From: a virus | Strand: one strand, 5' to 3' | UHGV virus genome: UHGV-0036853 | DNA length: 64,000 nucleotides | Shown here: positions 48,001 through 51,000 of the stretch, one piece after another | Layout of the letters: every line of letters begins with the position of its first letter | How positions within the stretch are numbered: the first letter of the stretch is position 1 | Program-made: the position numbers

Positions 48001-51000
48001 TTAATATTAATGAAACTATTAAGATTAAGTGTGGCACAACGTTAGCTCGCCATTTATGTTCAAACCCATATACAGGTTCAACATTAGAGATAGGTAACAG
48101 CGCCATTGATTTAGAAGAAAAGATAAGATTGTGTAATGTTTTGAAGAATAAACAATATCAGTGGGTTATTACTGAAGCCTATGAGTTACTGGAAGACTAT
48201 ATTGAGGCAATATATGTCTATACTGTATGTGTTCGAAATGATTTCTGGTCCTCAAGTAATTTTGGTAAGGTTGAAGATGATGACATTGGGAAAGGGGAAG
48301 TTTATTACAAATTATTAAAAGCAAAAAGTAACCCATCGAAAAAAATAATTAAAATTTTCAGAAATAAAATACCTGGCTTCAAAGAGATAGAAATAAACAA
48401 CAAGATTGGTAAAAACTATCGCTTTAACATCAAGCTAATTGAACTACTAAGACATACAATAGTACACAATAGTGGACGATTCAATGATACAGAAAAATTT
48501 ATAAATAAGGTTTTAGATGAATCTGAAATAAACGGTAAGAAAAGAGTTATTGGAGAAAGAGCTGTTAGAAGTTACATTGCTAAAGTGCAAGAAGATGATA
48601 TTGTAATGCTCTTAGAAAGACCATCTGAAATTTTTGGTTCTTTTGGTGGTTATTTTAACAGAGCAAAATTTTTACTAAGTGATATTTTAGAATACTCACT
48701 AATCATTAAAGAAGAACTAAAATCATATCTAGGCAATCATTAACAAAAAAAGGGGCCGAAGCCCCTTTGAATTTTGCGCTGAAAAAAGTGTTGCTAGGAT
48801 GTTAGCAAGCTATGGTTAAGAACGTCTGCCGTAATTGTCTATCACAGCGTTGAGCGGTCTGGTTTATGTTAGCGGAGTCTTAATCTGGGTGATTAAAAGG
48901 CCAAACCGCTCAACGCTGTGTCTGGCGGAGAGTAATGGAATCGAACCATCATCGCTTGCGCAATGGGACGGTTTTCAAGACCGCTTGAGCACCATGCTCC
49001 CTACTCTCCGGCCGTTGTGGTGGCCGGTACTGAATCTCCGGCATACGGTGCAGCCAATTAGGACTACGGACGATCACCGCTCGCGAAAGGGAAGATTTGC
49101 GGCCGCATTTCCCTAACATCCAAGAAAGCTATCGCATCAGTCTGCGAATCCACCACAACGGAAAGAGCATTCACGTCTCGCGTGCCACCACGAATGGCAA
49201 CTCAGAGAGTCGAACTCTGAAAATGCTCTTACCTGTTGTGTGCTGTGTCACTCCCTCCGCTATTACCTGGCTTTGCCTCGACCTTTTAGGTTGCGTCCGA
49301 TGATAAACAGGGCTGTCGGAAATTTGTCTGTGACACAGCGATAAGAGAACTCGATGCATTTAAGCCAAGCCCCATATGGGAAGTTCTCTTATCTGTTGTG
49401 CGCTCCGTTTCGTGGAGCTAACGGCGGGTGAACAGGCCGCACCAGGTTGGACATATTTCAGCGTTATGCTGTTGCAAGAGAGCCAAATTGTGATGGTCGG
49501 TGCTGAACTCCGACACAGGGTTGTAGCAAGCCCCGCAAAGCGCGCACTACTGTAGTTGCGGCACATCAGCCTGTGCATTCACCACAATGTTGAGAACACT
49601 GGTTGTCACGCTGCAACGCAACATTTATTCATAGATTGGGATATGACCCCGTTACGCCAATGTTCTCAATATTATGTTGGTGCCGGTTAACGGACTTGAA
49701 CCGCTGACCATTCGCTTACAAAGCGACTGCTCTACCAACTGAGCTAAACCGGCAATTTGGTGGGGAGTGATGGAGTCGAACCACCCGAGTCGCAATGACA
49801 GTAGATTTACAGTCTACCCCGCTACCCCTACGGACTAACTCCCCTAAATTGGCGATGGTGGGTGGATTCGAACCACCGACCAGTTGGTTAACAGCCAACT
49901 GCTCTACCGCTGAGCTACACCATCAATTCGGCACTGCCAGTATTTATTACTCAACAGTGCCAATCGCGACGGTTTAGTTTCTGCCAGGAAACGCACCGCT
50001 ACTTGCACTTTTCGTTAGTGCCAGACGCTTTCGACTTCGCTCAATAGTAGAAGGCAAACTCTTTAAGTAGATGATGTTTCTGAGGACAGCACCTACTTTG
50101 TAATTTATACAATGTGATGTATGGAATCATTTGTTGTGAAAACAGGCACCAATGGCAACAGTGGTTAAACCTACACAACTATTCTGTCTTCACAACGTTG
50201 AGGCCACTACTCCGATTGAATGTTTGCCCAACATGTTACATATCAACGCTCGCCGGTATCTCTGTGAATAGAACCTTAGAATTGATAAAAATGTAATGGC
50301 CTCAACGTTGTGTGCTGGCTAACCATACCAGCCGGGCTACGTCGCCGCTTTTTAACCCAGTATAAACGACATAATTGAACAAAATGACGTAACAGAATGG
50401 GCGGTCAGTGGCTAAGAATCCGGGAGTCATATGGAGTTGAAAATATACCGACCGCCCATTCTGTTACTTCATCGGAGGGAACACTCATGTTCCCTCCTGC
50501 GTTCTGCAATCACACTCGCTCAGTGTGTCCCATTTCGGTAACGAGGCTGGAAACTGACCTCGCTGGTGTTTGGCTTATTAGGCTACTGCCAGATAGACTT
50601 CTTCGTTTGCACTTGTATTTAAGTTCAAACAGTCGCGTCTCAACGAAAACAAAGTCATCTTATACACAAAAGATAAGTAAGTAAATACTTATCAATATGT
50701 TTTTATTCGGTTGTGACTTTTTTGATCAAGGCCACTCTAGGACTAGGTGTTCTTGTAATGGTGGCAGTGAATCGTTTCGCTTGGATAGTAATGGTTTCGT
50801 TCTCCTTAAGTTGCCCGTAGCGAGTTTCCACCAGGGTGCCAAGACGCCACAGACCATCATCGATACGTTTATGACTAGCAAATTTAATCAGCAACAGTTT
50901 TACGACTAACTGACCTACGTAAAAGGCGAATGCGACTCCGGCCGCTAAGAAATAGGTGGCCAACCACCAGTCCCAAGAAGTTAAATTGCTCATTTTCTAA

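Follow-up and report, generated by a model that had tools for sequence, protein, structure and literature searches.

The tRNA cluster of phage T4 gives rise to two stable RNAs, 'species 1' and 'species 2', that are matured by RNase P and RNase III; neither is known as a family of scaffold plus variable insert, or as an RNA common to phage groups. In the TMERs of murine gammaherpesvirus 68, which involve pol III and tRNase Z, pre-miRNA hairpins follow a tRNA-like element of the virus, and an engineered 'tRNA scaffold' is used to express recombinant RNAs. YrlA and other bacterial Y RNAs have a long conserved terminal stem and arms that mimic tRNA, and YrlA is a substrate of tRNA enzymes (Chen et al. 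2014, PMC4201824). By its title, a paper by Daniels, Subbarao, Blattner & Lozeron (Virology 1988; reference 49 in PMC7547250) deals with the processing, by RNase III, of the late, Q-dependent transcript of lambda.

Here, we analysed a tRNA array in a 64-kb stretch of viral DNA (the whole of which is referred to as the window) and found that its tRNA genes are interspersed with a linker (M1), a hairpin-closed module (M2), and modules of two kinds, referred to as HP and T2. By sequence comparison, HP and T2 are two widespread, unannotated RNA families shared horizontally among Enterobacterales phages. As with species 1 and species 2 of T4, the modules would, by our proposal, be small stable RNAs made in one transcript with phage tRNAs, from which host tRNA-processing enzymes release them. 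In lambda, a canonical HP lies directly after the terminator tR' and has a ~20-bp stem with a bulge and a mismatch, which is the type of substrate that RNase III uses; no description of this hairpin as a member of a conserved family with variable cores in different phages was found. The HP shares the long conserved stem with YrlA, and the core of one copy in the window (HP-C) has the same arm order; unlike YrlA, the modules have no Rfam match, no Ro60 gene is present among the neighbouring ORFs scanned, most HP cores are not tRNA-like, and the 5' and 3' ends of T2 lie at the acceptor stem, as in a real tRNA, and not on the anticodon side. The likeness to TMERs and to the tRNA scaffold, i.e. 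viral tRNA-like bodies and adjacent hairpins that serve as scaffolds for an RNA cargo, is an analogy only; TMERs are a eukaryotic virus system, and miRNA-like action is not implied for the phage cargo. Finally, GOLLD and ROOL are also structured non-coding RNAs of several hundred nt that adjoin phage tRNA genes, but the modules form a chain of small independent units rather than one large fold, and neither GOLLD (RF01998) nor ROOL (RF03087) gave an Rfam match at the gathering threshold or at E <= 10.

The tRNA array and its spacer

tRNA genes were called with ARAGORN on the whole 64-kb window and with the Rfam tRNA model. ARAGORN returned exactly four tRNAs, all on the minus strand, and these are the Ser, Thr, Tyr, and Asn genes already recognized in an initial annotation of this DNA. 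The phage-type character that was then ascribed to the cluster is borne out by the resemblance of the window to SSU5-like phage-plasmids (CMS-2020a, Cyrano) and by partial homology of the cluster to the tRNA region in the ban operon of P1, D6, and P7. Read along the minus strand, the array is composed as follows:

49850..49924, minus strand: tRNA-Asn (GUU), from ARAGORN; Rfam tRNA model, 75.5 bits
49758..49844, minus strand: tRNA-Tyr (GUA), class II with a long variable arm, from ARAGORN; Rfam tRNA model, 41.9 bits
49678..49753, minus strand: tRNA-Thr (UGU), from ARAGORN; Rfam tRNA model, 69 bits
49583..49679, minus strand: HP-A, divergent-arm subtype; MFE -35.3 kcal/mol, z = -5.0
49489..49585, minus strand: T2a, from the T2 search; acceptor GUGGUG/CAUCAC
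49401..49488, minus strand: M1, linker ending in hairpin GCUCC-ACGAAAC-GGAGC just upstream of HP-B
49334..49400, minus strand: HP-B, stalk hairpin with the commonest payload family (CCCAUAUGGGGCUUGGCUUAAAUGCAUCGAG); 12-bp perfect arms, z = -5.3
49242..49339, minus strand: M2, hairpin-closed by a 10-bp helix (GCUGUGUCAC/GUGACACAGC), inverted repeat; z = -2.5
49154..49240, minus strand: HP-C, canonical stalk (CACAACAGGUAAGAGCAUU ... AAUGCUCUUUCCGUUGUG); z = -4.7
49016..49156, minus strand: T2c, from the T2 search; acceptor GUGGUG/CACCAC
48923..49009, minus strand: tRNA-Ser (UGA) with an atypical D arm, from ARAGORN; Rfam tRNA-Sec model, 46.6 bits (cut-off 47)
48843..48920, minus strand: HP-E, inverted repeat with a 20-bp stalk and a 38-nt core; z = -9.7
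48749..48768, minus strand: bidirectional intrinsic terminator at the end of the array, from the terminator scan and ORF list

The Asn, Thr, and Tyr genes score above the Rfam tRNA cut-off, and the top model for the Ser gene is tRNA-Sec, just below the cut-off. The Ser gene matches the tRNA-Sec model best because its D arm is unusual; in the D6 record, the amino acid of the homologous Ser gene was not assigned by tRNAscan-SE. The Asn-Tyr-Thr trio is also present in phage Ro157c2YLVW, and for the homologous Thr and Asn genes of P1, the record gives tRNAs of Campylobacter and Chlamydia as the closest. The CCA end of tRNA-Thr is directly joined to HP-A, HP-E begins 2 nt past tRNA-Ser, and the terminator also closes a convergent 302-aa ORF at 47835-48743. 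Our main reading of these data, to which we give a probability of roughly 0.55, is that 49924-48749 on the minus strand is a single non-coding transcription unit made up of tRNAs and gap-free structured modules, the scaffolds of which would release small RNAs.

The Thr-Ser spacer does hold the repeats and hairpins first described in it, but its length is 668 nt (49010-49677) and not 650. It is fully resolved into, in order, HP-A, T2a, M1, HP-B, M2, HP-C, and T2c, and downstream of T2c the array continues with tRNA-Ser and then HP-E. Both inverted repeats reported at the outset were recovered within 1 nt of the coordinates first given: the repeat at 48844-48920 has 20-nt arms (48843-48862 and 48901-48920) that are 95% complementary with 16 bp perfect, and the repeat at 49339-49392 has arms of 12 perfect bp (49340-49351 and 49382-49393). 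For the RNAs that contain them, HP-E and HP-B, none of 200 shuffles was as good (z = -9.7 and -5.3, respectively). The tRNA-like fragments are real as well: a 5' end resembling that of a tRNA (GUGGUGaAUgCgCAGgCUGAUGcGc), together with a T-like hairpin that carries the 3' strand of the acceptor, is present twice (49585-49489 and 49156-49016). Decayed tRNAs are, however, not supported as the main reading, since these pieces are the two ends of complete T2 modules in which the acceptor, D, and T helices and a kissing helix of the D and T loops are kept by compensatory changes in different phages. The other options offered, processing signals or an uncharacterised small RNA, pointed in the right direction. 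A search for extra tRNAs or pseudo-tRNAs had also been proposed; ARAGORN and Rfam found none, yet the region is still clearly structured and conserved, and the absence of extra tRNA calls is a misleading refutation test for the spacer. Self-BLAST of the region gave weak internal repeats only, and the modular organisation is seen only by comparison with other phages.

Structure and covariation of the HP and T2 families

The HP is defined on the tRNA-sense strand by a 5' arm (CACAACAGGUAAGAGCAUUg) and a 3' arm (cAGUGCUCUUuCCGUUGUG) with a variable core between them. The arms form a stalk of ~20 bp (6 bp, one position that is bulged or mismatched, a bulged A by the family definition, and 13 bp) around a hypervariable core of 12-118 nt. 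In ~100 phage contigs, we counted 88 distinct HPs with 73 distinct cores from 46 unrelated core families; the arms are 92% identical on average, and flanks and cores lack conservation. Among the 120 viral contigs listed by a scan with a 16-nt pattern, 99 have both arms at a distance of 60-150 nt. Canonical T-arms were found in 11 of the 73 cores, and most cores have no tRNA-like parts. Over 56 distinct arm pairs, 94.5% of the cells are paired and double changes occur in 9 of 19 pairs; none of 500 shuffles matched these values, and slid controls pair at 35-64%. The helix contains ~139 G-U/U-G compared to 7 A-C/C-A, and because G-U exceeds A-C by ~20:1, it is read on the tRNA-sense strand. These comparative data show the HP to be a selected RNA structure on that strand. 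The stalk contains a conserved bulge and a U.U mismatch and, at 19-20 bp, has the length of dsRNA (~20 bp or more) expected of an RNase III processing hairpin.

The four HPs in the window fold with z-scores of -4.7 to -9.7 relative to shuffled sequence. HP-C is closest to the family arms (5' arm exact, one mismatch in the 3' arm), and its core contains a perfect T-arm (CAGAG-UUCGACU-CUCUG) followed by two small hairpins; relatives of this core in two other loci (L102 and L005) have a compensatory change in the T-stem. The arms of HP-B depart from the consensus in a way that agrees with compensatory changes, with three mismatches in the 5' arm, and its payload family has 24 instances. In HP-A and HP-E, the 6 + 1 + 13 architecture is retained while the arms have diverged and co-vary. 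Specifically, HP-A has 6 bp, a 1x1 A.C mismatch, and 13 bp around a 55-nt core with two hairpins; it is ~92% identical to the 'plp' region of phage P1, and the sub-hairpin UAACGGGKUCAUAUCCCAAUCUAC is common to its core and another HP of P1. HP-E is 97% conserved in phage Cyrano. A covariance model (R1) built on the stalk and run over the window with filters off recovered HP-B (E = 0.037), mis-aligned HP-C, and did not recover HP-A or HP-E, since a long core counts as an insertion and lowers the score; this model is unfit as a family detector.

T2 is defined by an acceptor GUGRUG that pairs with CAYCAC-A, D and T stems of 4 and 5 bp, respectively, and a D-loop GCUGAU complementary to a T-loop AUCAGC. 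It is a 6-bp acceptor stem with D and T hairpins in which a hypervariable insert of 14-160 nt replaces the anticodon domain and the D and T loops pair with each other through 6 Watson-Crick bp (GCUGAU/AUCAGC), a kissing helix that makes up the elbow. In the structural search, pairing of the acceptor, D, and T stems served as the selection criteria and the kissing helix did not. There are 41 distinct units, with 24 insert families. The kissing helix is 93.9% paired and shows a G-C to A-U double change as well as G-U variants. Loop types are also paired with each other: AGGCUGAU goes with AGAUCAGCA, and AAUGGC with UUCGAUU. This pattern shows T2 to be a structure under selection on the tRNA-sense strand.

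T2a, which is the T2 unit of P1 and was found at 14 loci, has the D hairpin GCAC-AGGCUGAU-GUGC, a 46-nt insert, and the T hairpin GUCGG-AGUUCAGCA-CCGAC. Its MFE fold is cloverleaf-like and, because the predicted middle arm ends in a 3-nt loop, it has no anticodon loop. T2c, also present in D6, P7, and one further locus (L119), has the D hairpin UCGC-AGACUGAU-GCGA, a 90-nt insert, and the T hairpin GCCGG-AGAUUCAGUA-CCGGC; here a G-to-A change in the D-loop is matched by C-to-U in the T-loop (pair 16-43), giving the loop pair ACUGAU/AU(U)CAGU. Neither unit was matched by ARAGORN or the Rfam tRNA model in 49010-49677, even at E <= 10, and neither folds better than shuffles (z = -0.5 for T2a and -1.1 for T2c), which is also typical of real tRNAs.

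As for the other two modules, the fold of M1 is not significant relative to shuffles (z = -0.3); its terminal hairpin, with variant stems, precedes an HP in seven other loci (L005, L022, L026, L071, L097, L106, and L122). M2 is confined to the closest relatives and had no match in loci L001-L010.

Distribution and genomic context

The large hairpins are not peculiar to this DNA; they are members of the HP stalk family, and HP/T2 modules occur in lambda, P1, Stx, P22-like, and virulent Klebsiella and E. coli phages, with the module families carried by ~1/5 of complete E. coli genomes. The lambda HP (nt 44787-44863) starts 3 nt past the 6S terminator tR' in the leader of the late operon, and in lambdoid phages generally the modules lie downstream of PR'-tR' in the late leader. 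The P1 modules lie in the ban operon, between the C1-controlled promoter Pban and tciA, and those of virulent phages in tRNA regions. This distribution shows that HP and T2 are always located within strongly transcribed, untranslated leaders. Where tRNAs are near an HP, they are on the same strand in every case, and the orientation of the modules is always that of transcription; an HP starts 1-2 nt past the CCA of a tRNA, and at three loci (L027, L052, and L121) a tRNA starts directly after GUUGUG. Many HP/T2 loci, including those in lambda, HK75, and CUS-3, have no tRNA within 1.5 kb.

A scan of genome contigs with the 16-nt arms gave seven real loci among the 120 matches listed, the rest being chance matches; the seven are in Serratia, Yersinia, and lambda-like contigs, and the lambda-like matches in Pseudomonas and Pseudoxanthomonas assemblies are probably lambda contamination. 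Neither HP nor T2 was found in the Q-to-lysis regions of the E. coli K-12 cryptic prophages DLP12 and Qin. Both are absent from the annotation in Rfam 15 and RefSeq, and Rfam has no family that matches them (window at gathering threshold, region at E <= 10, 13 related loci at E <= 1); the scans returned only tRNAs, weak matches to tmRNA and DicF, and one rRNA-like match. In the literature, we did not find a description of HP or T2 modules; for phage L, a paper from 2020 names nothing but tRNAs in the corresponding slot. The Pas sRNAs (preprint 10.64898/2026.05.13.724894) come from the same Q-holin neighbourhood but are terminator-bearing Hfq sRNAs, and we rejected them as a counterpart.

Proposed processing of the modules and alternative explanations

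Our working hypothesis is that the modules most likely share a transcript with the tRNAs and are released from it, in the form of small scaffolded RNAs, by RNase P and RNase III. Specifically, the host tRNA machinery would cut the precursor, with RNase P acting at the 5' ends of the tRNAs and T2, RNase E or exonucleases trimming the 3' ends, and RNase III cutting within the HP stalk. If the precursor is cut in this way, then the stalk and the tRNA-like body would act as processing and stability scaffolds that free small structured RNAs along with the tRNAs, and the variable inserts would be the functional cargo. Because T2 has no encoded CCA and an acceptor of 6 bp instead of 7, its recognition by RNase P is an assumption. 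In lytic growth, the cargo would probably exert its effect in trans, whether as decoys, aptamers, or regulators. Because there is little variation within a payload family, covariation at the level of the payload is thin. Moreover, given how nearly identical the scaffold sequences of unrelated phages are, part of the conservation may stem from horizontal spread in the recent past, or from use as recombination handles, instead of purifying selection on an RNA function.

Another explanation is that the modules act only in cis, i.e. that they punctuate and insulate the precursor of tRNAs and late mRNA (being cut sites for RNase III and RNase P, folding insulators, and end-protecting hairpins) and that what varies, in cores and inserts, is neutral filler that does nothing itself. 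The exact adjoining of modules and tRNA ends agrees with this, as do the stalk, which resembles known RNase III sites in its length (about two turns of double helix), its conserved bulge, and its U.U mismatch, and the RNase III processing of the lambda late transcript that is on record in the title of Daniels et al. In addition, no payload targets were found: there was no antisense complementarity in ~1 Mb of phage loci and the window, and a BLAST comparison with the rrnH operon of E. coli brought out a single T2 insert family above shuffles. We nonetheless consider a purely cis-acting role doubtful, because many of the loci lack a nearby tRNA, filler is unlikely to keep internal hairpins, T-arms (11/73 cores), and a look-alike of 16S helix 11, and the elaborate kissing elbow of T2 would be superfluous in a spacer. 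That the conserved arms are DNA-level recombination handles ('boundary sequence' linkers at which co-infecting phages could swap tRNA or moron cassettes, or attC-like sites), and the tRNA-like pieces relics of duplicated tRNA genes and of integration scars, is unlikely. Like integron attC sites and lambdoid boundary sequences, the HPs are imperfect inverted repeats with arms ending in ...AAC and GTT... as in attC R boxes, an extrahelical base, a variable centre, and cassette-like shuffling, which is seen among P1, D6, Ro157c2YLVW, and the SSU5-like plasmids with breakpoints at the conserved arms; moreover, the CUS-3 record calls the flanks of the slot 'boundary sequence', and P1 has a decayed copy of a tRNA-Thr 3' end ahead of module A. 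The scaffolds are also nearly identical in unrelated phages. However, the excess of G-U over A-C and the compensatory changes indicate selection for RNA pairing on one strand, which handles do not need, and module orientation always follows transcription. The fit to attC is also incomplete: GCACAAC and GTTGTGC agree with RYYYAAC/GTTRRRY at 6/7 positions each, and the cassettes are RNAs and not ORFs. An IntI-type integrase was not identified; the only integrase-family protein of the window (46100-47203), near the array, gave a generic Pfam match, to Phage_integrase. IntI-type integrases are not known from lambda, P1, or virulent phages. A role as recombination handle is compatible with RNA function.

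An RNP RNA of the YrlA or tmRNA type, in which the stalk binds a protein (cf. Ro60/Rsr) and the tRNA-like parts tether an enzyme, would account for the succession of T-arm, middle hairpin, and small 4-bp hairpin within a long bulged stem in HP-C, as in YrlA. T2 likewise resembles tmRNA in keeping acceptor, D-like, and T arms with a large domain in place of the anticodon arm, and T2 units give weak, sub-threshold matches to tmRNA models; these reach 11-26 bits compared to cut-offs of 47-84, and ARAGORN in tmRNA mode (-m) was negative at all loci. Because T2, unlike tmRNA, has no tag reading frame, no encoded CCA, and an elbow made of a Watson-Crick kissing helix, because the region has no match to such RNAs in Rfam at E <= 10, because tRNA-like parts are missing from most HP cores, and because the neighbouring ORFs scanned (integrase, ligase, unknowns) include no TROVE protein, this explanation is very unlikely; to our knowledge, Rsr is generally absent from E. 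coli. The least credible option is that the region consists of protein genes on the opposite strand. Although Upl (63 aa) and Plp (125 aa, a 'putative lipoprotein') are annotated here in the P1 GenBank record and a window ORF (49376-49555, 59 aa) is homologous to upl, the upl substitutions between the window and P1 are distributed 1/8/6 over codon positions 1/2/3, and plp starts with a non-ATG codon, overlaps trnT in antisense, and has indels of 1, 4, 10, and 19 nt in addition to module-level truncations in relatives. Furthermore, spacer ORFs match no Pfam family, no protein-coding gene covers the region in 40 PLSDB plasmid rows, and the RNA covariation is on the other strand, making a coding function extremely improbable.

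If the modules are indeed processed functional RNAs, then lambda, P1, Stx phages, and ~1/5 of complete E. coli genomes would hold an unannotated class of non-coding RNA, located in the most strongly transcribed lytic leaders. Existing annotations, namely upl/plp of P1 and the runs of short 'hypothetical proteins' (30-45 aa) in genomes of Ackermannviridae and Schitoviridae, would need revision, and the role of the lambda late leader and of the tRNA/stx slot would be directly testable through simple lambda deletions. The stalk and the tRNA-like body, with its designed-looking kissing-helix elbow, would then be natural portable RNA scaffolds. Going beyond scaffolded processing, we tentatively suggest, as a possibility that we do not favour, that Enterobacterales phages carry an 'RNA display', i.e. 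two scaffolds, matured by host tRNA enzymes, with fast-swapping payloads whose action in trans, in the lytic phase, would be that of decoys or aptamers directed at host factors; payloads serving as anti-defence decoys would add a new layer to the phage-host arms race. Examples of conceivable decoy targets are tRNA-targeting defence nucleases and ribosomal proteins. A hint at the latter is the T2 insert family that resembles 16S rRNA, a helix-11 look-alike with compensatory changes.

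The tRNA array and its tiling by modules

At 96-98% identity, Escherichia phage CMS-2020a and a 110-kb E. coli plasmid are the records nearest to the window, followed by the SSU5-like phage-plasmid Cyrano, and parts of the spacer between tRNA-Ser and tRNA-Thr are ~92-96% identical to P1, P7, D6, RCS47, and Ro157c2YLVW. Across the whole window, ARAGORN called exactly four tRNA genes, each on the minus strand, and they are the four (Ser, Thr, Tyr, and Asn) that the initial annotation had read from the sequence; Rfam supports Asn, Thr, and Tyr, while the best model for tRNA-Ser is tRNA-Sec (46.6 bits vs. 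a cut-off of 47). The two inverted repeats claimed there were likewise found at their sites, and the 911-nt stretch folds far more strongly than shuffled sequences on both strands (z = -5.4 and -4.9), and the earlier observation is therefore confirmed. The four tRNAs are ordinary phage tRNAs. On the minus strand, the spacer is fully tiled by modules of two recurring types, HP (a stalk hairpin with conserved arms around a hypervariable core) and T2 (a tRNA-like body with a variable insert), together with two other modules, M1 and M2.

Modules and tRNA genes of the array
49850-49924, minus strand: tRNA-Asn-GUU (ARAGORN, Rfam)
49758-49844, minus strand: tRNA-Tyr-GUA (ARAGORN, Rfam)
49678-49753, minus strand: tRNA-Thr-UGU (ARAGORN, Rfam)
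49679-49583, minus strand: HP-A (spacer tiling)
49585-49489, minus strand: T2a (spacer tiling)
49488-49401, minus strand: M1 (spacer tiling)
49400-49334, minus strand: HP-B (spacer tiling)
49339-49242, minus strand: M2 (spacer tiling)
49240-49154, minus strand: HP-C (spacer tiling)
49156-49016, minus strand: T2c (spacer tiling)
49015-49010, minus strand: 6-nt gap
49009-48923, minus strand: tRNA-Ser-UGA (ARAGORN)
48922-48921, minus strand: 2-nt gap
48920-48843, minus strand: HP-E (tiling, downstream of tRNA-Ser)

An intrinsic terminator (48768-48749) closes the array unit. Among the neighbouring genes, one at 46100-47203 encodes an integrase and one at 51514-52836 an ATP-dependent DNA ligase. 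The stretch that separates the tRNAs from the minus-strand genes upstream has no consensus sigma-70 promoter, and no further HP or T2 copies were found elsewhere in the window. Folded in isolation, HP-A, HP-B, HP-C, and HP-E gave z = -5.0, -5.3, -4.7, and -9.7, respectively, and T2a and T2c each folded into a cloverleaf-like structure with acceptor, D, and T arms and without an anticodon loop.

HP-E is followed by two tandem terminator-like hairpins (48749-48842; UUGCUA-ACAUCC-UAGCAA + U6 and GGGGC-UUCG-GCCCC + U7), the second of which is bidirectional and also terminates a convergent 302-aa ORF (47835-48743) without a Pfam match. In the Rfam tRNA-Sec alignment, tRNA-Ser is atypical: its D stem is long and its D loop has 4 nt. 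For its D6 homologue, a GenBank note states that tRNAscan-SE leaves the amino acid uncalled. The window gene may encode a serine tRNA of the allo-tRNA-like type.

Two families of structured RNA modules

HP is defined by a 5' arm, (C)ACAACAGGUAAGAGCAUU, and a 3' arm, AAUGCUCUUWCCGUUGUG, and the core between them differs wholly from module to module. When IMG/VR was scanned for a 16-nt segment of the 5' arm, at least 120 contigs matched; among the matches listed, the 3' arm lies 60-150 nt downstream in 99 of 120 contigs, and there are 88 distinct HPs with 73 distinct cores of 12-118 nt in 46 unrelated families. Only the two arms and the start of the downstream T2 are conserved in sequence. The helix (6 bp, a bulged A, and 13 bp) is 94.5% paired over 56 distinct arm pairs with two-sided changes in 9 of 19 pairs; none of 500 shuffles matched any of five measures, and slid controls were 35-64% paired. 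Among the matches listed, three irregularities are themselves conserved: besides the bulged A, 61 of 88 HPs have a U.U mismatch and 72 of 88 have a U-G pair. At positions that depart from Watson-Crick pairing, G-U/U-G occurs ~139 times vs. 7 for A-C/C-A; because G-U would be mismatched on the opposite strand, selection on the HP helix acts on the tRNA-sense strand. In the window, HP-A and HP-E have diverged arms and retain the 6 + 1 + 13 layout, while HP-B, which carries the commonest payload of the family, departs from the consensus at three positions of its 5' arm, as expected of compensated changes, and its arms pair as a perfect helix of 12 bp.

T2 begins with GUGRUGaAU and the hairpin GCRC-AGGCUGAU-GYGC and ends with the hairpin GYCGG-AGAUCAGCA-CCGRY followed by CAYCAC-A; the stretch between these ends varies from 14 to 160 nt. 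A structural search yielded 41 credible distinct units (65-213 nt) with 24 unrelated insert families. Because this search selected on pairing of the acceptor, D, and T stems, only double changes count for these stems, and such compensatory variants occur in the acceptor (GUGAUG/CAUCAC), D stem (GCAC/GUGC, UCGC/GCGA, and ACGC/GCGU), and T stem (GCAGG/CCUGC and ACCGG/CCGGU). A stronger indication comes from a pairing outside the search criteria, in that the D-loop GCUGAU and the T-loop AUCAGC are reverse complements of each other; the resulting 6-bp kissing helix is 93.9% paired over 22 distinct scaffolds, and its variants include G-U pairs and, in T2c, a single double change from G-C to A-U. 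The loop types co-occur, the kissing pair being present in 34 units and a canonical T-loop (UUCGAUU/UUCGACU) in 7, most of which have a GG-containing D-loop. Thus, T2 is a tRNA-shaped body in which Watson-Crick pairs replace the canonical elbow contacts and a variable insert replaces the anticodon domain.

Because the scaffolds are invariant while the inserts are of dozens of unrelated kinds, the data suggest that the inserts are cargo for which the scaffolds supply processing and stability. One T2 insert family (loci L100, L093, and L116, e.g. L116 1953-1999) copies helix 11 of 16S rRNA (E. coli nt 246-282), scoring 43 bits in BLAST vs. at most 29.5 in shuffles and matching the Rfam SSU model at E = 5e-7, with compensatory stem changes (AGCUAGAUGGUGAGGUAAUGGCUCACCAUGGCGACGA); such inserts could serve to decoy a ribosomal protein or a factor that targets rRNA. 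Among the payloads, no general mimicry of rRNA or tRNA and no antisense targets were found. Canonical T-loop hairpins lie within 11 of the 73 HP cores.

The HP 5' arm is often immediately preceded by a small hairpin, as in loci L013, L083, L095, L098, L016, and L027. Its loop, GAAAGA/GAAGAGA, is conserved and recalls boxB-type GNRA-like loops, and its 5-bp stem co-varies (GCCUG.../GCUGG.../GCCGG.../CCUCG...). A second recurrent upstream element, GUGAUUAAUAAUGGGCA, is present in Stx-like, Klebsiella, and N4-like phages.

Occurrence in phages and bacterial genomes

Every tRNA near an HP lies on its strand, and tRNAs abut the HP arms: the CCA of a tRNA is separated from CACAAC by 1-2 nt, and in L027, L052, and L121 a tRNA 5' end directly follows GUUGUG. 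In lambdoid and P22-like phages (HK75, HK629, CUS-3, and others), HP lies between the late-promoter terminator tR' and the holin gene, the slot occupied by tRNA-Asn/Thr in Sf6. In lambda itself (NC_001416), nt 44787-44863 (L253 988-1064) form a canonical HP that lies 3 nt past tR', the terminator of 6S RNA, and ~320 nt upstream of gene S; at this site the sole annotation, 'orf-64' (44621-44815), overlaps it partially. The sequence 3' of this HP (CUGAAUUAAGCGAAUACCGGAAGCAGAACCGG...) is the core of the D6 HP that follows tRNA-Ser. Sequence identical to the lambda late leader also occurs in non-enterobacterial 'genome' contigs, i.e. L196 (Pseudomonas sp. 30_B NODE_31, 48442 bp), L181 (Pseudoxanthomonas, 695 bp), and L206; because the 48.4-kb contig is lambda-sized, these look like lambda DNA contamination of assemblies.

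A 41-nt HP/T2 junction is present in 160 GenBank phage records with hosts in Klebsiella, Escherichia, Salmonella, Cronobacter, Erwinia, Hafnia, Pantoea, and Enterobacter, and in 1115 of 5426 complete E. coli genomes; no annotated feature lies under the match in the 15 E. coli matches listed. The carriers include virulent Ackermannviridae (Magnus), Schitoviridae (nithesis), and 48-kb siphophages, in which the HP-T2 unit is followed by tRNA-Arg(UCU) and tRNA-Met/Ile(CAU). The identity of scaffolds between phages is partly owed to horizontal spread. Beside tRNA genes in Magnus (L255 1900-4450) and nithesis (L257 1360-3330), 'hypothetical proteins' of 30-70 aa run over 2-3 kb, in nithesis on both strands; one HP and one T2 were found in each region, and the remainder may be more structured RNA modules.

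Weak matches to the DicF model (22-27 bits, cut-off 48) lie near HP/T2 in two viral contigs, at L074 1020-1067 and L116 1829-1878, and a 'dicF-like region' is annotated just upstream of the P1 tRNAs (L001 3628-3729). DicF-type sRNAs may share these leaders with HP/T2; in the window, no such sRNA was found.

Proposed processing model and alternative readings

The P1 homologous region lies within the ban operon, in the order C1-controlled Pban, dicF-like region, trnA(Asn), trnT(Thr), ~730 nt, tciABC, trnI, and ban. On the opposite strand of the ~730 nt, the P1 record has two ORFs, upl and plp, and we considered that the spacer is coding. This was rejected: the spacer ORFs matched no Pfam family, window vs. 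P1 substitutions in upl fall 1/8/6 at codon positions 1/2/3, and plp, which has a non-ATG start codon and runs antisense through trnT, in relatives either carries indels (1, 4, 10, and 19 nt) or is truncated by whole modules. In all probability, upl and plp (L001 2479-3048) are artefacts of annotation on the strand antisense to HP/T2 modules; plp overlaps trnT, and neither ORF shows coding-type conservation. In 40 PLSDB plasmid rows, from a table that omits RNA genes and pseudogenes, no protein-coding gene covers the region.

For HP and T2, the structure, strand, tiling, abutment to tRNAs, and place in untranslated, strongly transcribed leaders are directly established. From these we infer that the array would be co-transcribed with the tRNAs, that RNase P would cleave at the 5' ends of the tRNAs and of T2, followed by 3' trimming and possibly CCA addition, and that RNase III would cleave the ~20-bp HP stalk and free the core hairpin. 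Daniels et al. reportedly described RNase III processing of the lambda late transcript in 1988; as a lead, this would fit HP, since no other long dsRNA is as evident where that transcript begins, and the 1988 site may lie within the HP family.

That the modules are only cis-acting punctuation or insulation with neutral filler is plausible for the stalk, but some loci carry modules without tRNAs, and payloads are structured and conserved. Alternatively, the modules could be recombination handles at the DNA level or products of tRNA decay, as favored by their cassette-like shuffling (in a comparison with ten relatives, spacer blocks were present, missing, or re-ordered depending on the phage), the 'boundary sequence' labels in CUS-3, and the AAC...GTT arm ends; however, the G-U/A-C asymmetry and the covariation require selection on RNA, and an IntI-type integrase was not identified. 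Roles at the RNA and DNA levels may both be at work. A Y-RNA-like RNP is a further alternative: the arm order of HP-C is like that of YrlA, but there is no model match and no Ro60 context.

HP and T2 are absent from Rfam 15 and from the RefSeq annotation rows examined. HP can be likened to RNase III processing stalks in its mode of working, T2 to tmRNA and YrlA as another tRNA-shaped non-coding RNA, and the use of T2 to MHV68 TMERs and the engineered tRNA scaffold. We therefore class HP and T2 among phage tRNA-array-associated structured RNAs. A 2020 expert description of the phage L slot has tRNAs only and states their excision from late mRNA as not known.

In P1, a module that separates module A from the first HP carries at its end the T-arm and acceptor 3' end of a decayed tRNA-Thr (GGCCGGAACCGUAACCGGCACUA; L001, tRNA-sense strand, ~2480-2510), with a window counterpart at 49693-49678. 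This hints that some modules stem from duplicated tRNA genes or integration-type duplications.
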